Origin: Carcharhinus amblyrhynchos
Taxonomy: Eukaryota
DNA: 64,000 bases
Assembly (NCBI GenBank): GCA_965287045.1
Contig: OZ336876.1
Location: 3,348,001-3,412,000, forward strand
Direction of reading: 5' to 3'
Shown here: in pieces, positions 38,252 to 63,721 of the stretch
How positions within the stretch are numbered: the stretch's first letter is position 1
Layout: each line of letters starts with the position of its first letter
Notes under the pieces: model-generated
Database searches by the model: none
What the model saw: the letters and a program-made list of their open reading frames with translations, nothing else
What the model was told of the DNA's origin: nothing
Position numbers and translations under genes: made by a program

Positions 38252-38380
38252 TTAGCTCCGTGGGAGGTTTTCATAATCACCACCTTCCTCCATTTCAAGT
38301 GTTTCCAAATGATTGTCCTTCATGCCATGATGAAGCGCTGCATACGTAACAAAATGTTCGTTGTGGCTTTCCATGTTATT
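38252..38380 (-). CDS. FCRL terminal exon with ITIM VTYAAL and C-terminal DYENL
   Basis: tttctctttaaatttcag|AAT, phase 0; NNMESHNEHFVTYAALHHGMKDNHLETLEMEEGGDYENLPRS*; too short for the ORF track. Confidence 0.88.
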   Translation of the reverse strand, partial: NNMESHNEHFVTYAALHHGMKDNHLETLEMEEGGDYENLPRS

Positions 38381-38619
38381 CTGAAATTTAAAGAGAAACA
38401 TCCGACAAGATAAACATACTTGCAGCATCATGGTAATCTTGATTTATAATAACCCAACTGTCAGGGCTAATAACTCAGGGTATGAGTTCAAACGCCAACA
38501 CAGCAGTTTCAGAACATAAATTCAATTAATTTGTAAACTGGGGGTTAAATGGGAAGGAAAAATGTATTCTTGCAATTGACAGGGTGGCAGTGGGGTGGGA
38601 TGGTGGAGGAGTGGGGGCG

Positions 38620-38940
38620 ACATGGCGCTGGAGTAATGTTACAGAATTGTTACATAACATTCCAGATAACCACACCAATTCTCTGGTGACATGGGTTCAA
38701 TTTCCAAGAAAGTGGATGGTGGAATTGATATTCAACATATATCACTGAAATTCAAAAGCAATCTCCTAATGTTGAATTGCCATGGACTGTTGTAAAGTAT
38801 CCCTTTTCAAACTTCAGTGAGGAAATATTCTGCTCTTGCCTAGTCTGGCACACTTATTGATCCAATACCACAGCATCGTGGTTTACCTTTACATAGTTGA
38901 GTCGGATTAATCCATGGGCAACTATAATTAAGATTGGCAT
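38620..38940 (+). mobile_element. Deu-domain SINE
   Basis: gacatgggttcaatttc, gatggtggaattga, gcctagtctggc. Confidence 0.6.
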
Positions 38941-39359
38941 GGAGACTTATTTTTATTCTAGATGCGGAATGATTGGAAAGTAAAGCACAGTTGAAAGACA
39001 AAATGAACCATAGTCATCCTGAATAGGGCAGAAGACTCGATAGGCAAAATGATCAGCTCCTCCTCTTAGTTCTACTAAGAATTGGTGGGCCATATGCATA
39101 AGGTAAATGTGTAGACAATTCTATTCTTTACAATTCACAATTAGCTACATTTAAGCATAATTGGCAGGATTTGTCGTTCCCCTACCCTTTTTCATTTCGT
39201 GGGCTATGAAAATTGCAGGCCAAGCCTGGATTTATTAGCAATCTGTAGATTTCTCGACCAGTGATATTATGGCTATGACAACCTTTTCACCAATCTTTAT
39301 GCCATTTTACTTCTGTTTCATTTTGGCATTGTTCTTGCAATAAAAAAAAACGAATAAAA

Positions 39360-40045
39360 GAACACATAAGAACATAAGAAATAGGAGCAGGAGTAGGCCA
39401 TCTAGCCCTTCGAGCCTGCCCCGCCATTCAATAAGAGCATGGCTGATCTGAAGTAGTCCCGCTCTCTCCCCATAACCCTTAATTCCCTTGTCTGTCAAAA
39501 ACTTATCTACCCATGACTTAAATATATTTAGCGAGGTAGCCTCCACCACTTCAACGGGCAGAGAATTCCAGAGATTCACCACCCTTTGAGTGAAGAAGTT
39601 CCTCCTCAACTCCGGTCTAAACTGCCCGCCCCCCTCTATCTTGAGGCTGTGCCCTATAGTCCTGCTATCCTTTCTAAGCGGGAAGAATCTCTCTACCTCT
39701 ACCCTATCCACCCCTTTCATTATCTTATACATCTCTATAAGATCCCCCTTCATCCTTCTAAACTCCAACGAGTACAGTCCCAGTCGATTTAGTCTCTCTT
39801 CATAGTCCAACACCCTCATCTCCGGTATCAGCCTAGTGAACCTCCTCCACACTCCCTCCAAGGCCAGAATATCCTTGCTCAAGTGTGGCGACCAAAACTG
39901 CACACAGTACTCCAGCTGCGGCCTCACCAGTGCCCTGCAAGTTGCAGCAAGACCTCCCTGTTTTTATATTCTATCGCCCTTGCTATAAAGGCCAGCATAC
40001 CAGTCGCCTTCTTGATCACCTGCTGCACCTGCAGACTGGGTTCTT
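39360..40045 (-). mobile_element. Young CR1 LINE 3' end, same subfamily as 27693-28680
   Basis: ORF 39307-39927 RPQLEYCVQFWSP...RRNFFTQRVVNLWNSLP; near-identical 3' tail. Confidence 0.96.
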
Positions 40046-40249
40046 GCGACAAAACATTTCAAAAAGATTCCAGGTTGCAATGTTGGCGTCTTAGAATTTA
40101 ATAAGACGTGTTGCGACAGCAGTTGTAAACCCGAGACCTCTTCTATGCAGTAGGACAAGTGCAGGAGCTACGTAAAATCACAGGCCTCATCAAAATTCCC
40201 TCGAATTGACAGACAACCCTGGCTAGAAAAATATCTCGTTTTCTTCACA

Positions 40250-40560
40250 TTCCTATAGAATCACTATAGTGACGTAATTTGGTCCATCAAAGCTGCACTG
40301 GATCTCCAACAGAGAACTCCATCCAAGCCCTATTCCCAAAACGTCAAGTATTACGTTGCTAATCCCCTAATGCACACATCCTGTGACACTAATTATGGCC
40401 AAACAACCTGCACATCTGTGGACAGTGGGAGGCAACCAAAGTACCCCGAAGAAGCCTATGCAGACGCGGGAGGACGTGCACATTCCACACAGACCCAAGG
40501 CATGAATTAAATATGGGTCGCTGGTCCTGGGAGGCAGACGTGCTAACAACTGCCGGCCGC
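40250..40560 (-). mobile_element. HE1-type SINE
   Basis: ggacagtgggaggcaaccaaagtacccg..cattccacacagac..gggtcgctgg. Confidence 0.75.
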
Positions 40561-41296
40561 TTGGCTCTGCTTCTGGAACTTCTTGCTAATACCGATATGG
40601 ATATGGCTCTAGTAAATGGACTGAAGAGTTGGAAGTGGGCAGTCTACCATTGCCTTCCCAAGGTCAGTTATGAATGTGATTGATTTTAAAAAAAACTCCT
40701 CTCCCTTGTAGCATCTGCGTCCCATGAAGGGACAACTATAATCCTAAAAAAGTTGAAAAAAAAACACTCCTTCCAAATGTTAAATAAGATCTTGTTGCAA
40801 AATCATCACAAGTGCATCTGAAACTTCCACCCATCATGATCGCCCTGGAAGCAAGTGGGAATGAAATCTCTATTGTAATGAACATGATATAAGTTATTCT
40901 CTGCTGCCGCTTTAATTTTTTTTTGTCCCGAACCGACATTTGCTGTTTCTCAACGAGGTTGCAAGAAAAAAATTGAAAAGATTCATCAGTTTGATTTTGG
41001 GACTTAAAACTGCCACTGAATCTGATAGATGAAAATTGGCCATTTTATGTTATATAGTAAAGGTCCTAATTAATGTCCCAGAAGCAAGATGAACGTTCAC
41101 TGCAGGGCGACGTTTAAAATTATTGACACTGAGGCATGAAGTCTTTTTTTCAACACATGCATACCTTTTCTAAAGTGTGTATACACCAATTCGACCATTG
41201 TTATGCTAATGTTAGGTTTTAATGTTTAAGCTGGAAATACACCGGAATTTAATATGATATTTATTATTATGTTTTTTTTCCGTAAATAAAACGTAC

Positions 41297-41328
41297 CTGA
41301 TTACATCTTGCCTTGCCTCCATGGATAT
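41297..41328 (-). CDS. FCRL cytoplasmic exon 4 (DIHGGKARCNQ)
   Basis: cttaattttcag|AT ... CAG|gtacgt; 32 bp, phase 1-0. Confidence 0.8.
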
Positions 41329-41729
41329 CTGAAAATTAAGCGACAGTTTTTAATTGGACTTTAACGACTCGACAGTGTTTCATCAGTCATGTGCAATGAC
41401 GATTTTAGTGTAATCACTAAATTTGCACCCATGGATTTTAATCCCTCTTTGACCCAAAGTAGACTAAAATAAATTGAAATTGACGACAAACGAACGTTCA
41501 GCGACTTCTATACTTTTCAGTGATGCCAAATGTGCCCAATCGCATGCGTTATAGACACAAACCAATATTTCGAATGCCCAAGGTGGAAGGCATTTGCATG
41601 AACTCCCGTAACCCTGGAAAACAATTTCAAATCTCTATTTAACCAACATTATGCACTCAAAGAGACCTGGTAGCGTTGTCGCAGGCACTGAACTTGGGTG
41701 GCTGTCTGAAGTTTTCACTTGGGCGGCAA

Positions 41730-42060
41730 GCTGACACATTGGGTGAGCATTGCTGCAGCACATCGCCAGAGACGCAGGTTCGATCGGATGCCTGTCTGTG
41801 TGGAGTTTTCAAGTTCCCTTCAGTATGCGTGAGTTCCCTCCGTGTGTTCCCGGACCTTCCCGCAGTACAAAGATGTGCCGAATAGGTCCATGGACCAGGC
41901 GAAATTGCTCCGGAGTGTCTAAAAGTGTGAAGGATGGGTGGAATGGCCATGATCCATGAGCGCGGTTGTGGGGTTAGGGCGGCAATGCGCTCCTAGATAC
42001 AGGGTTGGCGCAAGCTCGATGGAGCAAAAGCGTTCTTCTGCACTGTAGGAATCTTATGCG
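41730..42060 (+). mobile_element. HE1-type SINE
   Basis: gcattgctgc..gcaggttcgatc..tgtctgtgtggagttt..ctgcactgtagga. Confidence 0.75.
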
Positions 42061-42069
42061 TCTACTAAT

Positions 42070-43260
42070 CTACCCATCTAAGGTAGTTAAGCAGCATCAG
42101 CATGGTTTTGGAAACGAAATTCATTATTCAGCTAATTTACCTGTGCACTTTAAAGAAGTAACTGGTGTTGCGGATAAAATCATACCAGGAGTTCAAAAAA
42201 AAACTATTGCAATGTCAATGTTTTGGCGTCAAATATAATCGCACGGTTTGAGGGTAATATAAGGAAGAGTCGAAACATTATCAGTCAAGAGAAAACAGAG
42301 GAGAGGCAAATGTTTTGTTTGAAAGGGTGTGATGAGTGGTGTGTAAATGGCGGCGGCTGGGTGTGGGGGGGGGGGGCAGTGGGGCGGAGGGTCTGCCCTT
42401 TGCATTCATCTTAAATGAATTCAACTAGGGGACTTCGCTTTCTATTTGCGAAATTTCTAGTTGTACAAATAAAGATAGGAAAATAAATTTCGAGGAGGAT
42501 ATAAGGATTCTAGATGAGAATGTGTATAGGTTAAGTGGACAACGAATGGCAAATGGAACATAAAATGCTAAAATGTGAAATTACACATTTTGGCAGGGTA
42601 ATTAAAAACGCAAAGTTTCATCTGAAGGCTGAGATATTTCACAGCTCTGCCTTTTAGAGTGATTTGGGTGACTCGGAACATGAATCGTAATATGTCAGCA
42701 TGCAGGCGCCGCCAATAATGATCAAATCTAAGATAATTCTATTGTCTATTGAGAGGGGAATTGAATACACACTGTTCTCTAATACACTGAATTTCTGCGA
42801 TCACATCTATCATGATTAGTCATCACATCTAAGGAAACATGTGAATATATTGGACACAGATTAGAGGAAATTTAGCAGTGTGAAACTTGGAACATAGTTT
42901 GCCTTATGAGGAAAAAATGAAGTCTAAACTTAGATTGACTGGACTTACGAATAGTAAGAGACAAATTGTAACGTGTAAGGTCCTTAGGTGGCTTAACAAC
43001 ATGTATTTGATAAGGATGTGCCCCCTTACGGCAGAATCTAGAACGTAAAATCTGTTCAACCCGTTCCCTTAAGACAGCCTGCCGACTCCGTATATTAGCC
43101 TAGTAAACCTTCTGTGAACTTCTTCCAAACCATTTGCATCCTTGATTAAATAAGGTGACCTATCACGTAGCCGATATTCCAAATACGGTCTCAACAGTGA
43201 TCAGTGCAACTGAAGAAGAATCTCTCCACATTGTTGATGCAATTGTACAAAAAATAACAT
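42070..43260. mobile_element. Old CR1 fragments (+ to about 43070, - at 43080-43260)
   Basis: QQHGF, WQME..CEITHFGR and YEEK remnants. Confidence 0.65.
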
Positions 43261-43334
43261 TTAACAAAAATTAATAAGCAGTAACTGGAGTTGTCATCTA
43301 ATTAACAAAGAATCCAAAAAGTAACAGAGCTTAC

Positions 43335-43400
43335 CAAGGTCTTGTGCTGTTGCTATTGAGACAAGTGAATAAACCAGATTGGCATCGCTTTTCGTAGCAT
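43335..43400 (-). CDS. FCRL cytoplasmic exon 3 with ITIM LVYSLV
   Basis: ttttcccatttaatttag|AT ... G|gtaagc; 66 bp, phase 1-1; DATKSDANLVYSLVSIATAQDL. Confidence 0.88.
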
Positions 43401-43476
43401 CTAAATTAAATGGGAAAACTGTTAAACTAGCAATAAGAGAGCAGAATTGCTCAGAAATAATGCAACACTGATGTTG

Positions 43477-43478
<2 letters not shown>

Positions 43479-43506
<28 letters not shown>
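43479..43506 (+). repeat. (GT)14 microsatellite
   Basis: Direct reading. Confidence 0.95.
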
Positions 43507-43509
<3 letters not shown>

Positions 43510-43599
43510 ATTTAAGTGTGAATGAAAAAAGAGAGGATGTGACAGAGAAACAGAAAGATGGACACATAGAAAAATATATAAATAGGTGCATAAGCGACA

Positions 43600-43830
43600 G
43601 ACAAATGGACGGACGGATGGGTCAACGATTGTTGGACGGACGAATGCAGAGAGGGAGGGATATGGGTGGGAGGAAGACAGGGAGGGAGGAAGAGAGGGAG
43701 GGATGCGAGGGAGGGAGGCAGAGAGCAATGCAGGGAGGAAGGGGGAGAGGGACGAACGGGTAGATGGATGGACGTGTGGAAAGAAGGTGAACAGACCAAT
43801 GGATGGGTGAGGATGGAAGGGTGGAGCATG
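43600..43830 (+). repeat. GGAG/GGAT purine-rich low-complexity tract
   Basis: Direct reading. Confidence 0.85.
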
Positions 43831-43959
43831 TTCAAAATAAGGAATGTCAAATATAAAGGAGTTTTATGCTGTCCACTGGCGTGTTTCAACATAGAACTCC
43901 GGGAAACGAATACTGTACATTTCTGTTTTCAACCGTTCCACTTCAAGTGAAACCCAAAT

Positions 43960-44780
43960 TCCTTGGTTCCATGGCGACACCTCCATCACAATTATCCTCA
44001 GCACCGTTGAACCACAAGGCTGTGTCCTCATTCCCTTACGATCTTCCTTACACATATCTTCATGTGGCCAAACTCCGCCCCAAATCCATTTTAACATTCG
44101 ATGGTGACAGCAGTGCAGTGGATCCCAACTGAGACATTGATGAGATGAGGTGGTGTACGGGAAACCGATACAGAGTATCTGATTAAATGTTGCGACAACA
44201 ATAATCCTTCCCTCAATGCCAGTCAAACAAATGAGATGCTAATCGATTTCAGGAAGCGTAGTGGAGTACATGCTCCTGTTGGCATCAACGTGGATGGCAT
44301 GGAAATTGACGAGAGTTTCAAGTGTCCAGCTCTCCAGATCATCAATAACTTGTCCTAGTCCTCCACGCTGACGCTATAATTTAGAAACCCCAGCAAGGTC
44401 TTTACATTCTCAGGAGGCGAAGGAAATTCAGCATGTCTGATATGATTCTCATTTTTTTTTTACAGATGCAACACAATAAACATCACTATTGGATGCATCA
44501 CACATTGGTATGGCTCCTACTGTGGCCAAGACCGAAAAAAAATTACAAAGTGAACGTAACTCAGTGGAACACACAAATCGACCTCCCATCTATTGACTTT
44601 GACTACACTCCGCGCTGCCTGAAAAAGCAACTGAGATAATTGAAGACCCCACGCACGCCAGATATTTTCTCTTCCACCTTCTTTGATCAAGGAAAGGATA
44701 GAAAATTCTGCGATCACGAATCAAAAATCAAGGACAGCGTCTTGACTGTTGCAATCACGCCTTTGCATGGACCTATCAAC
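43960..44780 (+). mobile_element. Rex1/Babar-clade LINE RT 3' fragment, degraded
   Basis: STVEPQGCVLIPL, NNNPSLNASQTNEMLIDFRK, QQGLYILRRRRKF remnants, versus Rex1-type TGAPQGCVLSPL..NNLSLNVSKTKELIIDFRK. Confidence 0.75.
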
Positions 44781-45239
44781 GCCTACTTCAGCCAAGGTTG
44801 TACCTCATATAGAAAAAAAACTACTAGGAGCAATTGTGGCAGAAATATTCCTATACCAGGCTAAATTACCCATAAGCAGCCACGGGAAAAGAACAGTTGA
44901 GGAACATGTTTGTGTTGCTGAAACTAAAGAGGTTCGGTTGAATTTCTACCATAGTTCATTTTTCATCTCCTGATATCTACTGGTAAAAGATTCAGGTTGG
45001 ATCACATATCAGATAACAAAGCTTCAATTGGCAGAGGACTTCAAGATATGCAGTTGCCTGAAAAGCCATGATGTCTACTGAAAAGCCATGATGTCTGCGA
45101 TGCAAACTGCACACATTAAAACATAAACAACCTCAACTTCAGTCGAGGTACCGTCAGTGTAACTGAAAAGAACAACAGATTTAACTTGTAAAATGATCTG
45201 AGAGGTGAATTTCCCACTATCAACTTTCCACAGAAAGCA

Positions 45240-45750
45240 AATGTAGAACTATGGGATCCCTAGAGTGCATACTATGGGACCCAGTCGAGGTAGCTAAATG
45301 TGTACAACATTGGCTTGATGATGGAAGACAACGGGTGGTTATAATGGGTTGTTTTTGAAATTGGAGACCTGTAACCAGCAGTGTGCCTGAGGCATCGGTT
45401 CTGGGTGGACTGTTAATTGTCATTATACGAAAGATTTGAATGAGAATATAGGAGGCATGATTAGTATGTTTGCAGATGGCATTGTGGACAGGGAAGAAGA
45501 TTATCTCGGATTGCCAGATTTCGGGACAAATGGCAGATGAAGTTTAATTTAGATAAATGTGAGATGATGCATTTTGGTAAATTGAACCAGAACAGGAGTG
45601 CTCTGTTAACAGTAGGGCGTTGGAGAAAGTTGCAGAACAAAGAGATGCAGGGGTACAGGTTCATAGCTCATTGAAAGTGATGTCACAGCTGGACAGAGTG
45701 GTGAAAAGGCATTCAGCATGCTTGGTTTCACTGGTCACAACATTGAATAC
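45240..45750 (+). mobile_element. CR1 RT fragment
   Basis: QRVVIMG..WRPVTSSVP, WQMKFNLDKCEMMHFG. Confidence 0.85.
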
Positions 45751-45751
45751 A

Positions 45752-46512
45752 AAGAAATAAGAACAAAGAACATTACAGCACAGGAACAGACCATTCGGGC
45801 TTCCAAGCCTGCGCCGACCATGCGGCCCGAATTAACTAAAACCCTCTACCCTTCTGAGGACCATATCCCTCTATTCCCATCCTATTTATATACTTGTTAA
45901 GACGCCCCTTAAAAGTCACTACCGTATTCGCTTTCATTATCTCCCCTGACAGGATGTTCCAGGCACCCACTAGTCTCTGTGTAAAACACAATCTGCCTCG
46001 TACATCTCCTTTAAACCTTGTGCGCCTTAAACCAATGCCCGCCTCCCACCACCCCCCCCCCCCCCCACCCCGTTCCGTGTATATCAACGAGGACCATCAG
46101 AGGATACAGGATGATACAGATCAGTTGGAGACTTGGGAAGAGAGACGGCATCCTGGTAAATCTTTTCTGTACTCTCTCCAAAGGCTCCACATCCTTCTGG
46201 TAGTGTGGCGACCAGAATTGAATACTATATTCCAACTGCGGCCTAACTAAGGTTCTGTAAAGCTGCAACATGACTTGCCATCTTTTTTTAAACACAATAC
46301 CCCGGCCGATGAAGGCAAGCATGCCATATGCCTTCTTCGCTACCTTGTCCATCTGCATTCCAACTTTCAGTGATCTATGTACCTGTACACCCAGATCCCT
46401 TTGCCTATCAATACTCTTAAATGTTCTGTCATTTACTGTACATTTCCTATCTGTATTAGACCTTCCAAAATGCATTACGTCACATTTGTCCGGATTAAAT
46501 TCCATCTGCCTT
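45752..46512 (-). mobile_element. CR1 3' part with internal deletion and inverted segment
   Basis: QMEFNPDKCDVMHFG..RPQLEYSIQFWSP..RFTRM (46145-46512), inverted piece 46075-46143, tail 45752-46045. Confidence 0.92.
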
Positions 46513-47257
46513 CTAGGGTGAGCTTGGGTTGGGATGCTGGTTAGGGGGATCAGTGTGATCAATTCACGGGGATACTTGGATAGTGTCTGGGTGGGATACT
46601 CTTTTGGAAATTGGTGCAGCATGGATGGGCCAAAAGACCTGCTTTTGTGCTGTAGAGTTTTATGACTTAAAATGCATAAACTGACTTCCTGCTTAAAATT
46701 TTAAGGCCCAGCAATGTATATTTTATTAGAAATGGGGTTATGCTGACCAGCGGAATTAACTTCTTCTCCCTTAGGTTAACCATCCAGATACTAGGTATTT
46801 CCTTCTTCGAAGACCAACAATCGTTTCCCGGAATGTTTAGTTATGATATTGATGAGAAGTCAGAGCCAAAGATTCATTAAGTACTCAAGGTGTGGTTTAA
46901 TGTTTTCGACTGTCAGGTTCCGATAATAGCTGTTTGATGATCTTCTACAAGCCACTGCCTTTAACATCCCTGCCCAAACTGGAAGATAAACCTTCAGCAA
47001 AACAACAAAATGAAAAAAAGAATAGTGTTCCAACAAAAGGTGATGTTTCTTCTGGACGAGTCAATTCTCAAGGTGGGATCCAGCTTGATAGTCCCTGCTG
47101 TGTAATGTTTAGAAACATAGATCAAGGCTATAAACTGATCATATAAATTCCTAATGCATCTCTAACAACACAATGAAACAATATTACACGGCGAATTGTT
47201 TCACACTGCTCCTTCACCTGAAATATTAACTTACAGAAATACACAGATTCGTTTGAC

Positions 47258-47530: not shown

Positions 47531-48569
47531 CACGCCACTCTTTGAAACAAACTGACAAACACCACCCCGAGCCAATTAAACGGATTTCTCATTAATGAAG
47601 CTCTGCCTTTCACAAGATGGATTCCAAACTCTGCTCTGGAATAACACGGCTTGGAATGTTTCCCAAATTGTATCTTACTCCTGGTGTCTTCACAAAGAAA
47701 CCACCAGACGGGTCTCAAGCTTTCCTTTCAATGTTCCTCTCTCTGGAGGACTACGTGCATTTAAACATCCACTACCCACACTGCCTCAGATAGTCAGCTG
47801 TACAAACACGATCACACTTCTTCAGCGTCCTGGAGTAATGCGTCACCAATCTTTGAGTCTCCTTGAATCCTGGCTTCTCGCAAATTTATGTCATTTCAGG
47901 CCTGCCGCTTGCAGCCGTATCATTTTAATTAGTGTCTATGATCCTTGTCCGTAATTTAACCTTAAAAGGAATAGTTTTCCAGACTGTTATTTCCGATGAA
48001 AAAGGATTTTCTTCGTTCTCAATTCTATCTCTAGCCCAAGTGTTTCGACTTCGAGGTTCTTCAGTTGGCGGCCCGCTATCATCTGACTCCATCATGGCCT
48101 ATTCTAGCAGATTATGCGAAAGGCTCCTTAATTCTAGTTCAAATTCTTCCAACTGAAATAAAACTGTATTTTATTCCCTTATGGTCTTACCGTTGCTAAC
48201 ACAGAACTATAGAAATATAAATTAACCTTAAACTTAAAATGTACCATAAACCCAAAACACATGAATGCAAACGTAACTCATTTAACTATTTTTATTTCCT
48301 GCTAATTTAAACGTAATAAAACTTTCAAAACGGCACGATTTTATTTTGCCATGCCAAACGTGAAGGCAAATTGCAAGAAGGAACATGCACAGAACAGAGC
48401 CAAATAGAATCATAGATTTTGATGATACAGGCTTCAACAAATACATTTCCTCTCTAGGTCAACCTAAATAATGCTTGATATCTGGACCGCAATGACATGG
48501 AACAACTGTTTAGATCTTTCTCATACCAGCAAATAAAGAAATCAGGTATCTGAGGAATATTTTCCCCAC

Positions 48570-48875: not shown

Positions 48876-49003
48876 GATTGGGCAAGGGGGAGGCAGTATG
48901 GTCCTGGGTTACAGCGCAAGATCAGGGGACATTTTATCAAATCCCACAACATGCAATATAAATCTGAATTAAAAATCGAACTATGACAAAGCATGTGACT
49001 TAC

Positions 49004-49089
49004 CATTATTTTCAGTGGCTTGAAATTGTCCGAAATTGATTGCAGATGCCTCCTCATTCAAGGGTTGAGATCGATTTGCACTTGCCTCA
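49004..49089 (-). CDS. FCRL cytoplasmic exon 2 (EASANRSQ...ATENN)
   Basis: ttttattgtacag|T ... G|gtaagt; 86 bp, phase 2-1, open frame. Confidence 0.8.
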
Positions 49090-49829
49090 CTGTACAATAA
49101 AACATGTGTTCAATTATTAATGAATAATAAAGAACAAAGAACAACACAGCACAGGAAACAGACCCTTTGGCCCAACAAGCCCGCACCGCCATTCTAACAT
49201 TGTGAGTGCCCACTTCTACCTAAGACCTTTGTCTACGCCTATTGGACTTCACAATAAAGGAATTATAACCAGATTGAGGGTCGCCTACTTTAGGGACAAT
49301 TTGTTAACACCAATCGGCCTAAGAGCCCGTTTTTGGGGTGTGGGAAGAAACCGGAGCAGTCGGAGCATAATGTCTCAACAACTGAAATCTCACGATGGGT
49401 GATGGACATACAAATTTGCAAAAGTAATCAGGCATATATTAGAAATGCTCTTTTTTTATTATTTTGGAACGTATTACTACAGTGCAAATGCATATAAACC
49501 ACCAAGTTCAACAATATCATGTACTCGGATGAACAACTTTAAAAATAATTATTTCACAAACTTCTGTCAAATATGAATCTAAAGCATGAAAGCAAAATAT
49601 TGTGGATGCTGAAAGCCTGAAGTCAAAACAGAAACTATTAGAAAAAAATCAGGAACTGTTGAGATGAATTGAATAAGTCTTTCCTATCTGTAGAACGTTA
49701 ATATAGATCCGAATCTTTCACTTCATTCTTCTACAATGATACTGTCAGACATGTCTGTCCAGCATTTTCTGTTAAAGAGTTTATATGCTGAAAACGGCCC
49801 CAGTGAGAAATATTTGTGTTCATATAATT

Positions 49830-51405
49830 TGGCAAGGGTACTAAAAGAAATGGCAGAAGTAATAGCAGGTGCATTAGTTGTAATTTATCAAAATTCACTG
49901 GACTCTGCGGAGGTGTCAGCTGATTGGAAAACAGTTAATGTGACGCCACTGTTTAAAAAGAGGAGGCAGACAAAAGGTGGGTAACTACAGGCCGGTGAGC
50001 TTAACGTCCGTAGTTGGGAAAATGCTGGAATCCATCATTAAAGAAGGACTAGCAGGACACCTAGGAAAGAATGATTCAATCAAGCAGACGCTGCATGGAT
50101 TCGTAAGAGAAAGTCATGTTTGACAAAGTTACTGGATTTTTTATGAACATATAGTGAGTACGGTTGACAGAGGGGAACCAGTGGATGTGGTGTTTTTAGA
50201 TTTCCAGAAGGTGTTCCATAAGGTGCCTCACAAAAGGTTGCTGCAAAAGATTAAGTTACACGGAGTTGGGGGTAAAGTGTTAGCGTGGACTGAGGATTGG
50301 CTATCTAACAGGAAGCAGAGTTGGAATAAATGGGTGTTTTTCCCATTGGCAGTTGGTGACTAGTGGTGTGCTGCAGGGATCGTTGCTGGGGCCTCACATG
50401 TTTACCATATACATGGACGATCTGGAAGAGGGGACCGAGTGTGGGGTAACAAAGTTTGCTGATGACGCAACGATGAATAGGATAGCAAATTGCATGGAGG
50501 AATGGTAGAAAGTCTGCAGAGATATTTGAAAAGAGTAAGTGAGTGGGCGAGGAGCTGGCAGATGGAGTATAACATTGACAAGCGTGAGGTTATCCACTTT
50601 GGAAGGAATATTATTTAAATGGTGAAAAATTACAACATGCTACCGTGCAGAGGGACCTGGGGTCCTCGTGCATGAATCACAAAAACTCAGTTTGCAGGTG
50701 CAGCAGATGTTCAAGAAGGCAAATGGAATGTTGGTCTTTATCGCGAGAGGGATGGAACCTAAAAGCAGGGAGGTCTTGCTACAATTGTACAAGGTACTGT
50801 CAGGCCGCAACTAGAGTACTGTGTGCAATTTTGGTCCCTTTATTTGCGAAAGGGTATTTTGGCCTTGGATGGAGTGCAGAGAAGGTTCACCAGGTTCATA
50901 CCGAAGATGAGGGGGTTAGCTGATGAGGAGAGATTGAGTAGATTGGGCCTGTACTCGTTGGAGTTTAGAAGGCTGGGGGGGTGCGGGGGGGGGGGGGGTG
51001 CGGTGCGATCTTGTAGAGAAATATAAGATAATGAAGGGGCTAGACAGGGTAGAGGCAGAGAGATTCTTTCCACTTAGAAAAGAAACAAGAAATGGAGGGC
51101 AGAGCCTCAAAACAAGGGGGAGTCAATTTAGAACAGAGTTGAGGAGGAGCTTCTTCTCTCAGAGGGTAGTGAATCTTTGGAATTCTCTGCCCATTGAAGC
51201 AGTGGAGGCTACCTCGTTCAATGTGTTTAAGTCACAGGTAGATAGATTTCTGATCAATAAGGAAATTAAGGGCTATGGGGAGCAGGCGGATAAGTGGAGC
51301 TGAACTACTGCCAGATCAGCTATGATCTTATTAAATGGCGGGGCAGACTCGAGGGGCTAGATGGCCTACTCCTGCTCCTATTTCATACGTTCTTATGTTC
51401 TTATT
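49830..51405 (+). mobile_element. CR1 LINE, about 1.6 kb 3' part with most of the RT
   Basis: DWKTVNVTPLFKK, VDVVFLDFQK..KVPHKRLL, KFADD, RRSFFSQRVVNLWNSLP, with frameshifts. Confidence 0.96.
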
Positions 51406-52764: not shown

Positions 52765-52795
52765 CCTTCTGGCAGGGAAACACCGGAAGAAGTAC
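52765..52795 (-). CDS. FCRL cytoplasmic exon 1 (STSSGVSLPEG)
   Basis: tttttatattttaaccag|GT ... GG|gtaagc; 31 bp, phase 1-2. Confidence 0.82.
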
Positions 52796-55249: not shown

Positions 55250-55560
55250 GGGGACTAAAATAGCAAGGCAGGCAATTGTTGTCCATCACTAGTTGTCAAT
55301 TAACTGACTAGCTTCCTCATTCATCTCGAAGAACACGGAAGAATAAACTAAAACAATCTGCTTCTGCAGTCAACATCGGCCAGGGCAGGTAAAGATGGAA
55401 AATCTCCTTCCCAAAAGGCCATTGATGAATCTCATCGGCTGTCACAATAACTAATAATTGTTTCATGGCATCCAACATTGATTCTAAATTCCAATATCAA
55501 TATTATTCTTTATATTCCAAGAGCATTCATTAAGGGAATTAAACGCATAACCGCAAAGGT
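55250..55560 (-). mobile_element. Deu-domain SINE, degraded
   Basis: ggccagggcaggtaaagatgg..tccttccc in reverse orientation. Confidence 0.6.
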
Positions 55561-56040
55561 TAATCCAGTCAATTGATATTACCCAGTGGCACAGTTTTTA
55601 GCACATTTTCTACACTCTGCCAGACAGGCGATTTCGATTGGCGCTTTGTTTGCATGTTTATGTGGTGTTTGCCTGTTTCCCCCATGCCTGCTTAATTCAT
55701 GATCGTCAAACAATCCAAACTTGTGCAGAGGAGGTAGATTCGCCATGAAAAGGTGCCCCTTAATATCCAAAGATATGCATTTATGTGGACGGGCCATGAT
55801 CAATGTGCATGTTTATACGGGATAGGTCAGGATGTGTGCCTAGGTAGAATATTCTTTCGGAGGTTCGTTGAAGACATATTGAGCTTAATGAATTATTTTT
55901 GCACTGCTGAGGCCTTATGTATTCTAAAGATTCATTCCTCCATGAACTGAACCTGATAAAATCATTGAAAAAAAAACACCTGTTTGCATGTTGATACAAA
56001 ATGATACAAAACATCAGAACAGGTATGATCAATATGTTAC

Positions 56041-56343
56041 CTTTCAACGTGACATCGATATACTTGCTGCTTATATTAAATACCGCTCCATCGATGCCAC
56101 TGTTTGTCGCTACACAGTGATATCGTCCTCCCTGGTCTTTCTTGAATGAATTAATAATGAGTTTGCTCCCATCGATGTTTAAGTGATAAGAGTCGCTGAA
56201 GTTTTCTACTTTTTGACTGTTTAAGTACCAGTGAAATTGTGGTGCAGTGCCTGTCCTCACCAGACATTGGAGAACGAGACGGTCCCCGGTGGAAATCTCA
56301 CTCGTGTTCATACTTGACATTAGAAAAGCATCCGACACAGGAA
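56041..56343 (-). CDS. Membrane-proximal C2-type Ig exon
   Basis: ggctctag|TT ... AAAG|gtaaca; 303 bp; VPVSDAFL..GDRLVLQC..GTAPQFHWYLN..LIINSF..DQGGRYHCVATN. Confidence 0.92.
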
Positions 56344-56719
56344 CTAGAGCCATAGAAAGAATTAAAAAAAAAATGCATTTTATAATATATGCATAGTTCA
56401 AGATTTTATTAGTTAAATATCGAACTAAATAAATAAATATTTGCAAAGTTGTGCAAATATCATTGGCATTATAATTGGAGAATGGTGATGGATTCCAAAT
56501 CAGTTAAGATTGTAAGGAATCTGGAAAGACTGTACGAGATTTCCAACGATGGCTGGATTATTAAGCCCGCGGCCCAAATTTCAGCTGTTTGCCAAATAAA
56601 CAAAGGAGTCATGAGAAACGTTTTATTTTTGCCACGAGAACGCTGTTCGGATGGCAACGTACTTCCAAAAATGTGTCAGACGTTGCACTAACTACGGTTG
56701 AGGAAAAGAGGGTCAGATG

Positions 56720-57310
56720 ATTATCTATTTAGGGGCTTAGGGGCTTGGTAAAACTATACAAGGTGAGAACTGGAATACTGGGAACAGCTTTGGTCCGCTT
56801 CTACGTGGAATGATATATTGTCATTGGAGGCAGTCCGAAGAAGGTTGACCAGTTGTTCCTAGTTGTTCCCAGATATGGAATCATGTTCATATGAAAAGAG
56901 ATTAAATTAGTTTGGGTCTGAACTCATTGCAGTTTAGAGAATGAGAGGCCTTACTCAGAGTAAGGCCAGACGAGATAGATAGAGGAAGTTTACTTCTGCG
57001 GGAAAGTCTAGGACCAGGTGACACAATCTCATTATAAGGAGTCGTCCAATTAAGACACTAATGGGGGAGGTCGGGGGTATTTTTCTCTCTGCGAGTAGTG
57101 AATCTGGGAAATTCTTTACAGTAGAAGGCTATAAACGTTGGGTTATGGGATGTTCAATGCTAACAGTGACAGATTTATTATCTGAAAGGCAATCAACAGT
57201 TTTTTTTTGGATGCATCAGGAAAGCGTATTTTAAGATTATACCAGCTGGAGAACCACAGATGGCCTGAACGGTCAACTTCTGCCCCAATATCTTATGCTC
57301 CTATGGTCCA
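56720..57310 (+). mobile_element. CR1 3' fragment
   Basis: LEYWEQLWS, LEAVRRRL, SYEKRLN remnants and tail. Confidence 0.75.
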
Positions 57311-57739
57311 GCTTTGAGGAAAAAGCAGGGATGTAGGGGAAAAAAGGTCAGTCATACTTTGGGAGAACTCTCAGTATGCCGGTTGAATGTATTTTCTATA
57401 TGCTGAATGCGTTCTATGCTGTTATGGGCTGAAAGCTAATTGGCAGTTGCATCGATTTCAATCGGATCCTCGAGTTGCACACTCACTGCGTGGCATATTA
57501 GTTCTAAATAATTATTCCTCTAACTGCAAGAAAATAAACTGCCACGCATTGGTCAAAAACAATCAAATTTTCCCTTTATCGCCCGGGGTGCATTGGTTGC
57601 AGGAAATGTAATTCAGCTATTTTTGCGCCAAGTGTCAGTGAGATGATTTGATGTGAAATTACCGATGCTTAACATGCGTAAACACGAGCTGTCATAAAAA
57701 GAAACGCACAGCAGATCAACAGGAGCTTCAGCTCTCTAC

Positions 57740-58240
57740 GTTGACAACAATCAGGATGCCGTAACTAAACAGAAAGTCATTTTGCCTTTCTTAGGTCCGT
57801 ATGCCTCTATTCGTGCCTTATTATTTAAACCATTCGGATGCCTATTAAATGTTGCTAATGTGCCTTTTTCTACCGCCTTCCCTGGCAGAACTTTCCCAGC
57901 ACCCACCACTCTCTGCTTGAAAAACTTCCCTTCACATCTTCCACAATTCCCCCCTTTCATCTTGAACCTGTGACCCCTTGGAATTGAAACTTCCACCTGG
58001 CAAAAACCTTGGAATATCCACCCTGTCTATCCCTCTCATAATTTTGCCAGGTCTCCCCTCAGCGTCCTTCCTTCCAGTGAAAAGATTCCTAGTTTATTCA
58101 TATTCAACCCCTCCTCAGAGCCAAAGCCGTCGAGAACATGAAAGGATCTGGTGAATGTTTTTCGTTCGTTCTCCAAAGCTTCCACGTCCTCCTGGTAGCT
58201 TGGTGACCAGAGGAACACGCAACTCTCCAAATGGCAAATT
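57740..58240 (-). mobile_element. CR1 3' fragment
   Basis: PRGHRFKMKG, KFFKQRVVGA, LWSPSYQEDVEALE. Confidence 0.8.
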
Positions 58241-58439
58241 AGAATTTTAATGACGGAGACGGTCATGCACTTTCTTTTTGAGATGCAGATGCACGCCTCT
58301 GTGCAGAGCTGGCATGTAAATAAAAAGGCCCCTCTCGACAGAGAGAATGAAGGCAATGTTATATGATGCCTGACCATCAAAGTTCAATCATATGGAGAGA
58401 CCTGTTCATTTGAAGGAAAGAGAGAACGCTTTTGACAGG

Positions 58440-58800
58440 CACCGGCGCACTGTGGTAAGCACATTTGCTTCACACTGCTAGGCATTGGGTTCGATGTCGT
58501 CTTTGGCAACGTCTGTGTGGAGTTTGCATGTTTTCCCCATATATATGTTCTCCCGGCGCTCCAGTTTCGTCCCACGTTTAACTGTACGTAGTTTAGATCG
58601 TTTGACCATGATTATTGCCCCCTAGCGTCTCAAGATGTGTAGGTTAGAGAGATTAGCAGAGTAAATATGTAATGTTACAACGATCACGTGTAGTGTAGAA
58701 TGAAAGTTGTGAATAATACTCTGTCGTACAGTTGGTGTGGATCAATGTGCTGAATGGTCTCTATCAGCACTATAGAGATTCTATTATTCTATGGTACTAT
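58440..58800 (+). mobile_element. HE1-type SINE
   Basis: ggcgcactgtggtaagcac..gggttcgat..gtctgtgtggagtttgcatg. Confidence 0.75.
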
Positions 58801-58889
58801 GAATTAAAGCTGCCATTGCAGTAGAAGCGCACACACTTCAGTCAAACCGAGCGTAGCGAGAGTGAACGTGATAGACATGCAATCTGGGA

Positions 58890-59190
58890 TTGGCGGGGCG
58901 GCACTGTGGAACAGTGGTTAGCAATGCTGCCTCACACCGCTAGGGCACGGTCTCAATTCCCGGCGTGGTCACTGTCTGTGTGGAGTTTCTCCATTCTCCC
59001 TGTGTCTGCGTGAGTTTCCTGCCACTGTACTCCAGTCTCCTCTCACAATCAAAAGATGTGCGGGTTAGGTGGATTGGCTATGCCAAATTCTCCCTCAGTG
59101 TACCCGAACAGGTGCCAGAATGTAGATTTTCACAGTAACTTCATTGGAGTGGTAATGTAAGACTATTTGTAATTAATGAGTAAGGTTTAC
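58890..59190 (+). mobile_element. tRNA-derived SINE (HE1-like head, different 3' tail)
   Basis: ggcggcactgtggaacagtggttagcaatgctgcctcac..ttaggtggattggctatgc..cacagtaacttcattg tail. Confidence 0.8.
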
Positions 59191-60380
59191 TTTAGGAAGA
59201 GCCATTTTGGGGCCAAATACTTTGGCTTAGCCATTGGAGCATTGAGGATCTAATCGATTGTGTGTTGCCAGCAGTGGATTAAAGATCCATGCTTTCTCGA
59301 CATCCTGCAGCACTTTTTAAATTCAAATGAATGTCCCAGAAAGGCCCAGTCAAATAAACGCTACAACTTCAGTGGGAACTGCTGAATTTGGAAATATGAC
59401 ACATAAACTGGAGTGAATTTGAGCATTAGACCTATTCTCCATGGACATGTTTTTTTTTCCCTGATGATTGCTTCTGTTGCCATATTTCTTAATGATCGGA
59501 GATATGGAACATGATAAGAAAATTTACATTTAGCATGTCTTTGTGCATATAGAAGCTAGGAAACAGGACAATTGATTCAAACAAGTTTAATGTATAATGG
59601 ATGAGGGACAAATGTATCTGTGTTTCGTTCCCATGATGAAGGGGAGAAGGGATAATATTTTTCCTTTTTTAAAATTATTTTTAGTTCAGATTTTTAAGCC
59701 GCACAGATATCTCGTTCTCTCCATGTAACTTCCTCATTCCCCAGAAACTAGGAGGCTTTGTGAGGGATGAAGTAGCTGCGCCAGTGTGTGTTGCTCCAGT
59801 GTACAACTGGTATGTGTGAGAGAAGACATAATAGAAAGAGTAGTACCATGCTGGATGTTGAGGGACAGAAAGAGAACTAATAGTGAAAATGGGAAACGCA
59901 GTGGACTGTGGCGTCAGAGAAAACACATCTGCTGTGACTTCTTGTAAAATGTACCCACTGAAACTTATTAGTGGTCGAGGTTGAATGTGAAGGTCGAGCA
60001 AAAGGGAAGCATCACATAGGAAGAGATCATTTTCCCTTAAATGTCAGTCTGCACAGCAATACCGATTGCACTCTGCAGTGAAATGGCCAGATCTCTCACA
60101 GTATCACAAATGATTATTGATTTTTCAAATATAAACTGTGTATGGAGGGTGGAGTAATGCTGAGATGAGTCTGCATCCTGCACAGTTCAGTGAATAAAGA
60201 ACAAAAGGAACGTGAGTGGTGATAATTGGGCAAATGCATACCTTGGTCTGAGTGTCACCTGTAATAACTGAGGCAGCTAGTTGCTTATTGCAAATATGCT
60301 TCAGCAGAATTATTATATACACACTTATCTTAAATCGATTCACGGCATTTATCTCACATCATTTATTAACATTGACTCAC

Positions 60381-60668
60381 CTATCACTGCCATCCACACG
60401 AAATTGCTCTGCAGGGAATCCTTTGTCCATTCATTTGCAACACAACAACTGTAATTTCCTTCCGAGGTTTTGTTGACTTCAATGATTCCATATGTAACCA
60501 TAGTCAAGTTAGTCGTCTCCCAATAGAGTTCCTTATTGAGGTTTTTGTAGAACGTATAAGTAATAGGAGTGGAGCCTTTGGACACTGAGCACGTGAAGGA
60601 CGCTACATCTCCCTCTATCAATTTGTTTCCGGGTTGTATTGTCAATCGAGGTTTTGACAATGGAATTC
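60381..60668 (-). CDS. FCRL D4/D5-type Ig exon
   Basis: attgatag|GA ... ATAG|gtgagt; 288 bp; RIPLSKPRLTI..EGD...FTCSVSKGSTPITYTFYK..SEGNYSCCVAN. Confidence 0.93.
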
Positions 60669-61129
60669 CTATCAATATAAGAATCGATTAGTTTGCAATT
60701 TGACTTGTAGGAATTTTGACTGTTTGCAGTCGGCTGAAATCTCGTTGTAATTTGTCGTCACTATTGGAAATATCTATCAAAGACAGGACTCTGCAATAAT
60801 GCAGTGCGATAGGGCTACATTGTCTAAATCAGTGGTGCAACTGTGCATTCCACTTGTTTATGTATTCATTGCGAGAAATTGTTTATACGTGGAGGAGGTT
60901 TACGTCATCATTTTCAGGTTTGTAGTGATTGCTACACATTGATGACTCCTCTTACTTATCTGCAACATGAGAGATAATAGTTTATTATCAGCATTCAATG
61001 TAATATGTAAGATAACAATGATAAACCGGGTGCCACTTTGATGCATCCCGTGAAAAATGTGATTTTGTACATTCACTTTTCTGCGATTGTTGTGTGAAAT
61101 TTATTTCATTGGACGCTTTCTGTTGTTGA

Positions 61130-61370
61130 CAACAGCCGTCCAGTCACAGCCCATCTTGATTCTACTTAGTGATTGACGTTATAGTTAATTTTAAGGGGAG
61201 GTTCAGCCGCAAACAGATTGTTATGGGTCAGTACATATGTAGGTCAGCTCAGAAAAGAACGGCATATTTCTCTCTCTAAAAGACATTAGCGAACCAGATG
61301 TTTTTTTTTATTTAGTATAAAAATTCAATATTATGGCCACTGTTACTGAGAAAAACCTTATCATACAGGG
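61130..61370 (-). mobile_element. Deu-domain SINE fragment
   Basis: cacatatgtagg-like, ggcatatttctctctctaaaagacattagcgaaccagatg in reverse orientation. Confidence 0.55.
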
Positions 61371-61549
61371 CCATGGTGGCATTTGGGCTAATGTGCTTCA
61401 AACTTCCAAGCACAGCATCAATACCAACATATGACAATCTCACATTATTCCAACAACATACCCACCAATATATGCAATTCCACCATAGAGCACTTATTAT
61501 GGATGTTGTATCAAAAATAAATAAATACATTCCTACAAATTACACTTAC

Positions 61550-61828
61550 TTCTGACAGAAACCACAACCTGATTACTCAGTTTCTTCACTCCACCATTGA
61601 GATTAGTTGCTTCACAGGTGTACATCCCTGAATCGTCCATCCCCACTCTCTCCCGTGTATAATAGTCGTATTCTGCAGTGTTAATGAGAGTTTGTCTGTC
61701 TTTCGAAAATGTGTACCTCAGAAGAAAATTGGAACGAAATATTTCAACCAAGCAGGTGAGATTTAGCTGTTGACCCTCAAACAACTGGGCGCCCGACTCA
61801 ACCTTCAGTACGGGTTTGGAGAAGACCT
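61550..61828 (-). CDS. FCRL D3-type Ig exon (second copy)
   Basis: cttattag|AG ... AGAA|gtaagt; 279 bp; EVFSKPVLKV..EGQQLNLTC..LRYTFSKD..DSGMYTCEA..VKKLS. Confidence 0.93.
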
Positions 61829-62959
61829 CTAATAAGAAGCAAATGCACAAGAACAACGCACGCATTAACCATCTGTCACAATGAATCTTACCACCACATA
61901 TATTTGGATAAAACCGAACATTGATCAGAGCAATGTTATTTCTACTGCAACTCTCAGAATGAGTTGGTCAAATATCTGTGTGTGTGTTTAAGAGTGACAG
62001 GAAACTGGCATAGCAGCAACTTTTGCAACTGAAATCGAAACTAATTCTTGCATATTATGTGGACACAATTTGAATCATCGTTTAAAATAGATGTAAACAA
62101 CTTTTAGGCTTGTAAGTATAGCCAGAGGCTGAAGTTGAATTAGGAACTGAGAAGCGCTGATTCATGCTCAAGTTGAAATCCACTCTCTGCAGAGATCGTA
62201 TTTTACATCTAGGTCCTGAACATTTAAGGATATTTTGTGACCACGTTTTAAATGAGATCAGTTCTGCTGCCACGACCATTATTTGTGAATCAACTGCTAT
62301 CCAATTTTCTGAATAAAAACCTCCTCACTGTCACACTCCCTGTTTCACTGAAAATTACAATCTGTCAGTGGCATCAGATTTTCTTTTATTTCACTTCTCT
62401 CCCGCTGCAGATCATGGAAAGAGTGTCAGATATGACGTTGGTAGTAGTGGACGCGTTCGCCCTTTATGAATGCAGGAGACTGCATTTCATTTGGCACTGA
62501 AATATTTTTGCCTCAGATATTTTAACTTTGAACACTTGAGTTCTCAAACCTTCTGTCCACACTTTACAAAGAGTTGGCAGCCTTAAAGCATCGGCTGACA
62601 TAATGCTACCATTTCGACTACCTTTAGCTTCTATTGAGTCAAGTGGGAACAAACAGAAGAAATGATTTCAACTTTTGTCCATGGTGTAATGTATGAGTTG
62701 TGTCAAAATATCAGACCAATGTTCACCAGATAACTTTTTCTTTCACTTGCCGATAACGATTTTTTTGGAGAGGACATTAAAATGGAGACCAACTAATGTT
62801 TTGCCTATTTCACACTTTTCATGATAATTTGTCTCTTGTAATTGTGTATGGTACACCTTTGTCAACAAGTCTGAAAAACTGTGGCTTATGAAATATGGAG
62901 TGTGAATGAACAACATGGTCCGGTGATTATGTTACATTATTTTATTTAGTATATCATTG

Positions 62960-63310
62960 GATTGAGGCACCGCTATCAAGAGCAGCATGTATTGCCCACC
63001 CGAATTGCTCTGGAAACGAAAACGTTTCAGAGAGCTTTTTTTAATGATACATATTATTGTGGCTCTTCAGTCACGATTACGCCAGGCCAAGTGAGGACAG
63101 GAATTTTTCGATTACTGGACCAAATATTTATTTTTCATGCAATAATGGGTGGGTTTAAATAATCACCATTACTGAGAATATATTTCAGTGTCTATGGCAT
63201 GGATGGGAATTATAGAGTCTGTCATGGGTGGTTTTGAACTGCTATCCCCAGAATTTAAACTTGGGTTTCTTGAAGACGATTCTCTGTCAGTACCGTGAAC
63301 GTCCATCTAT
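62960..63310 (-). mobile_element. Deu-domain SINE, degraded
   Basis: attgcccaccc, aggccaagtgaggacagg, ttttgaactgctatccccaga. Confidence 0.55.
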
Positions 63311-63442
63311 CCAGAAATGCTCTATTATCATCACCATACAATGGTGTAACAGTCAGTCATCGACTGTATGAAACTCCCACATCATGCTTGTTTAAATATA
63401 ATTTGTGCAATACTTCTTAATATATAGTGTTGCTGCACGTAC

Positions 63443-63721
63443 CCTTGACGGAAATTGATACCTCATCACTCTTCTTTTTCAATGTATAACGCCGAGAATT
63501 TGCTTCACAGTGATAGATCCCAGAGTCACTCAAGGAAGCCACAACTTCGTATTTATAGCTGGGAACGGAATTATAATTTAATTGTCTGCTGTCCTTGTAA
63601 AATGAGTATTGAAGCCGCTCATACTTCTGCCTTGTTTGCACAGCACAAATAAGTTTTAATGGCTGTCCCTCCAATATTTCATTTATTGGATCAATCTTCA
63701 GTGTTGGCTTGGAGAAGAGTT
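63443..63721 (-). CDS. FCRL D3-type Ig exon
   Basis: cattgcag|AA ... AAGG|gtacgt; 279 bp, phase 1-1; ELFSKPTLKI..EGQPLKLIC..LQYSFYKD..DSGIYHCEA..KKKS motif of FcR/FCRL D3 domains. Confidence 0.93.

Follow-up and report, generated by a model that had tools for sequence, protein, structure and literature searches.

A probable FCRL-type inhibitory receptor gene among leukocyte receptor complex markers in the shark Carcharhinus amblyrhynchos

Introduction

The closest described relatives of the gene treated here are the Fc receptor-like (FCRL) proteins of bony vertebrates, a group that the published view denies to cartilaginous fish. [quoted passage not shown] The other papers cited below by PMC number are likewise represented by their accessible parts. 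A common origin of the FcR and KIR/LILR families has been proposed without firm support (PMC2413239), teleost LITRs resemble both families (PMC4810170), and the time of origin of the LRC was called unclear in 2019 (PMC6557307). Here we analyse a window of 64 kb (the whole stretch C7:3348001-3412000) from the 2.92-Gb genome of the shark Carcharhinus amblyrhynchos and a gene in it that is probably an FCRL-type inhibitory receptor located in the shark LRC. The original prediction, made from the letters of the window alone, had named a cartilaginous fish as the probable source, and this is supported.

With mammalian FCRL3/FCRL5 (camel P0033, horse P0061, pig P0076) the shark gene shares D2, D3 and D4-position domains, an uncharged transmembrane (TM) segment, two ITIMs (immunoreceptor tyrosine-based inhibitory motifs), a split leader and a tandem cluster, and its YEN end is that of FCRL3. 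It differs from them by the lack of D1, a doubled D3, a last domain of gar/bird/frog type instead of D5, a leader mini-exon of 30 nt instead of 21 nt, LRC instead of 1q23 neighbours, and an identity of only ~25-29%. The membrane-proximal domain type and a three-tyrosine YEN tail recur in bird FCRLs (P0011, P0079, P0082) and in gar XP_069038942.1 (‘Fc receptor-like protein 3’), although the gar protein has the order D1-D2-D3-D4-D5-last and 24% identity over 79% of the shark ortholog P0001. Xenopus XFL genes also have repeated D3 domains, an expanded paired-receptor cluster and a two-exon leader, sometimes 30/21, but are linked to SLAMF8, IGSF9, DUSP23 and TAGLN2 of the 1q23 group (PMC2413239), in contrast to the LRC markers near the shark genes. 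PECAM1 (fish P0031 and others; C21 in this genome) has a D4 and a D6 resembling Ig1/Ig2 and Ig3, respectively, and an ITIM tail, but no D1/D2 FcR-type domains, no YEN in the tail and a separate locus; in bony-fish PECAM1 a D5-like domain stands between the D3-like and D4-like ones. Finally, the human LRC at 19q13.4 (LILR, KIR, OSCAR, IGSF1) has the same TSEN34, LENG8 and TTYH flanks and an adjacent array of LILR/IGSF1 type, while the shark gene's own domains are not of LRC type. No FCRL-type gene is known from the mammalian LRC.

Gene structure and splicing

All ten exons in the window (Table 1) lie on the minus strand and have AG/GT ends, with the sizes and phases described earlier, and 4/4 window Ig exons pass the Pfam Ig cut-offs. 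When every in-frame AG..GT candidate of the intron was scored without bias, the 86-nt tail exon came out on top; another candidate for this exon, near 48,000, was rejected because of a stop in frame. In an alignment that covered 4 runs, one 1,868-nt contig of the public run X1 (taken to be RNA by guess) aligns to 56041-56346 (record 780-1085, 5 differences) and to 37918-38380 (record 1406-1868, 13 differences), the latter match ending exactly at 38380. The 320 nt between the two matched pieces equal 105+31+86+66+32, i.e. the TM exon and the four short tail exons. Together with the exon ends and the ortholog of Mustelus asterias, this upholds the ten exons, their sizes and the tail entry phases 1,2,1,1,0 that had been proposed. 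Junctions upstream of Ig4 are predicted from collinearity with database orthologs.

While the tail is complete as claimed, the window does not contain the whole gene: three further exons, one Ig (Ig0) and two leader exons (S2, S1), are predicted 2-13 kb beyond its right end. The full model comprises 13 exons and 638 aa with 0 internal stops, and encodes a split leader, five Ig domains (D2-D3-D3-D4-‘last’), an uncharged TM segment, two ITIMs and a terminal YENL. The predicted two-exon leader, a trait of FcR/FCRL genes, consists of 43 nt (S1) and 30 nt (S2), compared to 31 + 30 in paralogs.

The spliced model is 81% identical over 614 aa to Mustelus asterias XP_078069756.1, which has every tail exon in the same order (Ig4 alone reaches 90%, as expected for a shark close to Mustelus), and 50% identical over 634 aa to white-shark XP_041038320.1, with the same architecture from the leader onward. 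Related proteins turned up in 7 shark and 4 ray species (38-81% identity where measured against the full model), and there was no chimaera protein among those returned. RefSeq names most of these relatives ‘Fc receptor-like protein 1-5’ and others ‘PECAM-like’, ‘hemicentin-1-like’ or ‘perlecan-like’. Models such as the two above, XP_067878183.1 and XP_051864813.1 (‘Fc receptor-like protein 2/3/4/5’) belong to the same family; the names are automatic and inconsistent, the N-terminus of the Mustelus model is unrelated, and no analysis is attached to them. The gene is real, and ordinary insofar as databases already name it; because RefSeq does so, its novelty is below what was first implied. What makes it noteworthy is that it conflicts with the published view and is placed in the LRC, a location that was invisible from the window and raises the novelty again.

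An orphan copy of the last exon with an open frame lies at 30012..30155 on the minus strand, 8 kb downstream of the gene's last exon, to which it is 70% identical at the DNA level over 84 nt. It enters in phase 0, is in phase with tail exon 4 and carries ITYATL and YEN motifs, and may be an alternative last exon or the remnant of a lost or deleted paralog; no copies of the tested tail exons were found in 29001-38200. Introns of the window are filled by degenerate long interspersed nuclear element (LINE) reverse-transcriptase fragments (27624-28600, 39310-40100, 45500-46700, 49800-51400), presumably CR1-like, and these account for most long open reading frames of the window.

Cytoplasmic tail and signalling

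Both LVYSLV and VTYAAL, 35 residues apart, fit the ITIM consensus of PMC10003336. Their tyrosines are present in 7/7 shark/ray tails listed. We take the terminal YENL to be a pY-x-N motif for Grb2. The resulting triad (an ITIM, a second one after 29-35 aa and YEN after a further 23-29 aa) is common to gar, swan, duck and camel FCRL3, and a similar one with shorter spacing occurs in manakin, while triad and YEN end are absent from 5/5 fish PECAM1 tails listed. A profile of 11 bony-vertebrate FCRL tails gave the shark tail 15.9 bits, compared to 3.2 for PECAM1 and 2.8 for CD22 (maximum of 200 shuffles: 5.8), and was also preferred by 8/8 database shark/ray tails. This agrees with the initial proposal of an inhibitory FCRL-type receptor with two ITIMs and a YEN end. 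The gene has five tail exons; Xenopus XFL genes have one to five (PMC2413239).

Upon binding of a surface or immune-complex ligand by the distal D2-D3 domains, co-clustering with an activating receptor (the B-cell receptor or an FcR-gamma-coupled one) would allow a Src-family kinase to phosphorylate both ITIMs. The phosphorylated pair would then dock the tandem SH2 domains of SHP-1/SHP-2 and dampen signalling, and the pY-E-N end might recruit Grb2-family adaptors. Human FCRL5 damps calcium flux of the B-cell receptor, likely via ITIM-SHP-1 (PMC13524021). B cells or myeloid cells are the most likely cell types, judging from mammalian FCRLs and from gene names in bamboo-shark single-cell data: B cells of that species express genes named fcgr1a-like, fcrl3 and fcrl5 (PMC11372145), a match by name only, and a bamboo-shark member of the shark FCRL-type family carries such names.

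Domain affinities

Class profiles, built without shark sequences, placed FCRL first in 4/5 domains (Ig0, Ig1, Ig2, Ig4). In a held-out test they were correct for 8/9 bony-vertebrate FCRL-named proteins (turtle failed) and sorted 6/6 domains of one PECAM1 correctly. Ig0 scored equally with FCRL D2 and D3 (39 bits each; CD22 35), Ig1 preferred FCRL D3 over PECAM D4 (56 vs 45), and Ig4 fell into the class of gar/bird/frog last domains (56 vs 41). Moreover, 14/14 PDB matches of Ig1 are to the Fc-receptor family, the best being FcgammaRI D3 with 31.2 bits. The ectodomain thus consists of D1-D5 subtypes in distal-to-proximal order as in FcR/FCRL proteins, except for Ig3, where PECAM D6 comes first. 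LRC profiles reached at most 30 bits where listed and were never first across the five domains, whereas in neighbouring genes they score first. A single-domain tree (LG+G4; 81 domains after 21/102 rows were dropped) grouped Ig1/Ig2 with tetrapod D3 (89/96) and Ig4 with the last domain of gar, frog and bird (97/80).

The AlphaFold model of the white-shark ortholog contains five Ig domains (pLDDT 76.8, pTM 0.48), and the top 4 clusters by ESM Atlas features of this ortholog are FCRL-named. A reciprocal search with gar FCRL put mammalian and frog FCRL5 on top; its 42 proteins, in a search restricted by shared words, included 0 from sharks and 2 PECAM1-like ones. Several comparisons were set aside. 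FCRL5 as best PDB match (Ig0, Ig2, Ig3) was discarded as evidence, since this nine-domain chain likewise ranks first for a PECAM1-like control when scores are summed, and PECAM1 chains encountered in PDB span just ~212 residues. PDB matches of Ig4 were generic (contactins), and Foldseek with the white-shark model did not discriminate (PIR-B first by E-value, FcgammaRI highest in identity with 26-27%).

Genomic setting

The gene belongs to a set of six FCRL-type genes, which has an array of LILR/IGSF1-type Ig exons, at least 66 in number, on one side and TSEN34, LENG8 and TTYH on the other (Table 1). These three markers (TTYH1 in mammals) are the conserved flanks of the mammalian LRC at 19q13.4 (PMC6557307), and the shark gene shares this location instead of a linkage to the 1q23 genes ETV3, KIRREL1, CD5L, the SLAM group and NCSTN. 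Beyond gene E follow exons of RBFOX, Josephin, DUF3754 and WD40 genes, the latter three presumably JOSD2, TMEM143 and GRWD1 of human 19q13.3; the marker genes including these three fall within C7 3.93-4.18 Mb. There are 0 N in C7 2.75-4.09 Mb and a single 100-N gap between TSEN34 and LENG8. ETS matches on C7 amounted to 0/39, PRCC was not found anywhere in the genome, and RGS-like matches lie on C29 and C16.

With the LILR-like exon of the window as query (150/204 candidates scored), 66/80 genome matches fell at C7 0.70-3.35 Mb and the remainder on C108 (9), C31 (3) and C29 (2). This array runs counter to the 2014 paper, according to which C2-only LRC genes are missing from sharks. The exon itself belongs to a separate gene that is convergent with the FCRL-type gene and forms the proximal end of the LRC-type array; in the single-domain tree the exon clusters with the domains of IGSF1 (88/92), and PECAM D2 belongs to the same set. 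An FcR-gamma-like TM exon is located on a small contig (C189:322662-322745; L140:2668-2757, minus strand), with FcR-gamma as top 5 PDB matches and 43.9 bits for FcR-gamma compared to 37.4 for CD3-zeta; a second zeta-family exon is found on C15. Going by sequence, the genome holds candidates for all three reported absences, i.e. FCRL, C2-only LRC genes and FcR-gamma.

The linkage might also have arisen secondarily, by a move of 1q23 FCRL orthologs beside the LRC in this shark lineage or by a mis-join, and would then be uninformative on ancestry, with a function as outlined above. CNOT3, another LRC marker, lies on C35, where 100 kb contained no Ig exon. The 19q13 block of this genome is accordingly divided and the chromosome tip rearranged; the FCRL-LRC linkage comes from the one genome examined. 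The cluster contig measures 128 Mb, compared to contigs of 5-27 Mb for several relatives, and subtelomeric immune clusters move readily. On the other hand, the FCRL-type genes are placed between LRC-type exons and TSEN34 in gap-free sequence and not at the outer edge, and four genome-wide searches returned no FCRL-type match on C13, albeit insensitive ones, one of which missed paralogs E and F. We consider such a secondary origin of the linkage doubtful.

In paralogs B-E the motifs of the last exon are retained, as are tail exons of 31(28) and 32 nt. Paralog E has the FCRL3-like order D1-D2-D3-(D4/PECAM D6)-D5-D5. Leaders and Ig exons of F and E are near-identical (D1 79%), and a putative TM exon of F carries an arginine near its start, for which reason the two may be an activating/inhibitory pair. 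In paralog D (C7:3553461-3560325), a shark-specific N-terminal Ig exon occurs five times in tandem, and three of these copies are almost the same, the result of a recent intragenic expansion. A weak match to the D1 exon of gene E (E 0.003) is found at C16:67447294-67447557, with an RGS-like (ARHGEF) exon 0.5 Mb away.

Table 1. Features of the FCRL-type gene and its surroundings. Positions without prefix are those of the window; nt, nucleotides.
Feature	Position	Strand	Size	Remarks
Ig1 exon, D3 type	63443..63721	-	279 nt	
Ig2 exon, D3 type	61550..61828	-	279 nt	
Ig3 exon, D4 position	60381..60668	-	288 nt	
Ig4 exon, membrane-proximal type common to gar, frog and bird FCRLs	56041..56343	-	303 nt	
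TM exon, membrane span without charged residue	54010..54114	-	105 nt	sequence; ortholog P0001
Tail exon 1	52765..52795	-	31 nt	enters in phase 1, leaves in phase 2; paralogs B, C, D share an exon of this size
Tail exon 2	49004..49089	-	86 nt	phase 2 to 1; top-ranked candidate; ortholog P0001
Tail exon 3	43335..43400	-	66 nt	entry phase 1; ITIM LVYSLV at 43360-43377
Tail exon 4	41297..41328	-	32 nt	enters in phase 1, leaves in phase 0; paralogs B, C, D, E share an exon of this size
Last coding exon	38252..38380	-	129 nt	entry phase 0; ITIM VTYAAL 38333-38350, YENL 38264-38275, stop
Probable 3' untranslated region	36918..38251	-		contig cover to 37918; first AATAAA 36923; end inferred
Intron leaving the window's right end	63722..64000	-		
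Ig0 exon, D2-like	C7:3414015-3414260	-	246 nt	predicted
Leader mini-exon S2	C7:3423080-3423109	-	30 nt	predicted; matches leader of white-shark ortholog P0013
Leader exon S1 with ATG	C7:3424900-3424942	-	43 nt coding	predicted
Paralogs B, C, D	C7 3.43-3.58 Mb			upstream of the gene
Genes F and E	C7:3634881-3766463 (3.63-3.77 Mb)			convergent pair, similar ectodomains
LILR/IGSF1-type Ig exon array	C7:698279-3352731		at least 66 exons	
Ig exon of separate single-Ig LILR/PIR-like gene	4408..4731	+		top six PDB matches PIR-B/LILRs
TM exon (uncharged) of LILR/PIR-like gene	6858-6956	+		
TSEN34	C7 4.066 Mb			
LENG8	C7 4.116 Mb			
Tweety (TTYH) gene	C7 4.16-4.18 Mb			

Further observations concern the surroundings. 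At C7:3145000-3285000, genes alternate SRCR and LRC-type Ig exons (12 SRCR motifs; 3/3 tested pass Pfam), which recalls mouse FCRLS and CD5L beside FCRL genes, although the Ig domains here are of LRC type. Two TM exons (L128:5581-5685 and L130:8971-9051, minus strand), which belong to LRC-type genes with two Ig domains, contain an arginine as well as a C-terminal glutamate and resemble FcR-gamma-pairing LRC membrane segments. Histone-like exons flank the receptor cluster on both sides (L174:6361-6489, L179:484-639, L196:5639-5794; H2A by Pfam), some of which, on the opposite strand, we take to be H3. TSEN34 and LENG8 have a small Maf-like exon between them (L154:8988-9089). At C13:71135000-71173000, an NLR gene with HD2 and LRR exons stands beside an ETS pair and nicastrin, a neighbourhood near which the FCRL genes of mammals are found.

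Ligand

The original prediction took the gene for a candidate receptor of the shark antibodies IgM, IgW or IgNAR, which would make it a long-sought Fc receptor. Human FCRL3, 4 and 5 bind IgA or IgG (PMC10003336, PMC13524021), the best PDB match of Ig1 is an Fc-receptor domain, PMC6795676 cites a paper of 1988 with the title ‘Fc receptor for shark IgM’, and the bamboo-shark B cells mentioned above express genes with fcrl3, fcrl5 and fcgr1a-like names (PMC11372145). However, the gene lacks D1, while human FCRL5 uses D1-D3 for IgG (PMC13524021); FCRL ligands vary between IgA, IgG and MHC II, the latter bound by FCRL6 (PMC10003336); and Ig binding has been argued to be a derived family trait (PMC2413239). 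Antibody binding is therefore not favoured and, for this gene, appears unlikely, paralog E with its D1-D2-D3 being the better candidate. For the D1-less gene, we infer that a non-antibody ligand, such as MHC or another self or pathogen surface protein, ranks above antibody Fc.

FCRL or PECAM1

Since D4-D6 of bony-fish PECAM1 resemble FCRL D3-D5, PECAM1 is a real rival, and the gene might instead be a shark-specific offshoot of the PECAM1/allergin-1 line, or stem from the base of a shared FCRL+PECAM1 domain family, have come by its FCRL-like names through convergence, and act as an ITIM-bearing receptor for adhesion or self-recognition. Ig3 scores 53 bits with PECAM D6 and 37 with FCRL D4, Ig2 is a near tie (FCRL D3 52 vs PECAM D4 46, and 52:52 with a wider cut), and the class profiles are small (3-15 sequences) and hand-chosen. 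PECAM clusters in the Atlas reach 0.97 vs 0.98, and one catshark relative is the ‘PECAM-like’ protein of RefSeq. In the single-domain tree, the D3 group also contains one fish PECAM D4, and the last-domain group also draws in two mammalian D1s. A concatenated three-domain tree (31 rows, 258 columns; turtle and Hemitrygon rows left out) is an open fork of sharks, FCRLs and PECAM1, and the approximately unbiased (AU) test rejects neither the grouping with FCRL (p-AU 0.297) nor that with PECAM1 (0.353).

The leader mini-exon S2, which speaks against the FCRL assignment and for this rival, has 30 nt in 5/6 cluster genes, with none found in the sixth, compared to 21 nt in mammals, where this size is a hallmark of FcR/FCRL genes (PMC7940838, PMC10003336), a rule that just a fraction of Xenopus XFL genes follow (PMC2413239). 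Also against the FCRL assignment, nicastrin, two ETS genes and COPA-like exons lie on C13. Presumably they represent the 1q23 block, and the 200 kb of it that were sampled contained no Ig exon. Expression support consists of the one X1 contig, which is 97-98% identical to the gene and whose run is RNA by guess.

Two PECAM1-like copies constitute the separate locus on C21 (8071019-8117111 and 8184996-8194314). The complete copy has seven Ig exons in an order unlike that of bony-fish PECAM1, with FCRL-D5-like domains at the end, and this oddity speaks for the PECAM1 line as well. Nevertheless, the fact that PECAM1 has its own locus speaks against such an origin, as do D1/D2-type domains, a D3 directly followed by a D4-type domain, the last domain of gar/bird/frog type and the YEN-ended triad, none of which occur in the fish PECAM1 proteins examined. 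Likewise, the six-domain order of PECAM1 is not found in the shark gene, where PECAM comes first for Ig3 only and PECAM D1, D2, D3 and D5 are missing. We thus regard a PECAM1-line origin as quite unlikely. CD22 or CEACAM identity was rejected, as neither was first for any of the five domains.

The gene is accordingly best described as FCRL-type and not filed as an ortholog of FCRL1-6, given the unseparated trees, Ig3, the near tie in the Atlas and the 30-nt leader mini-exon. The stricter claim of a true FCRL lineage, made originally, was not supported in view of the AU test, the mini-exon and 19q13.4 instead of 1q23 neighbours. The phylogenetic check proposed with it had a divided outcome: taken singly, Ig1, Ig2 and Ig4 group with FCRL domains, whereas the concatenated tree separates neither family, and of the alternatives then named CD22 and CEACAM dropped out while PECAM1 kept Ig3.

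Evolutionary implications

No publication on shark FCRLs or their LRC linkage was found in the literature searched, most subscription papers being outside it. An Immunogenetics article of 2021, reportedly about fish regions with LRC- and FcR-like genes, or a 2017 study, reportedly of the innate receptors of gar, may anticipate part of this. If the FCRL-type assignment and the linkage are taken together, it is possible, though we advance it tentatively, that sharks retain an ancestral single complex of FCRL-type and LILR/KIR-type genes on a 19q13-type chromosome, which bony vertebrates have split. The split might have come about by translocation, or after whole-genome duplication with FCRLs kept on the 1q23 duplicate and the LRC on 19q13. 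Linkage of both families among LRC markers is a previously missing kind of evidence for their common origin, and the two receptor families may once have shared one locus. If true, the first jawed vertebrates would already have had FCRL, LRC receptors and FcR-gamma, and the six-gene cluster would yield named candidates for antibody-binding receptors of sharks, in effect a short list for IgM, IgW and IgNAR.

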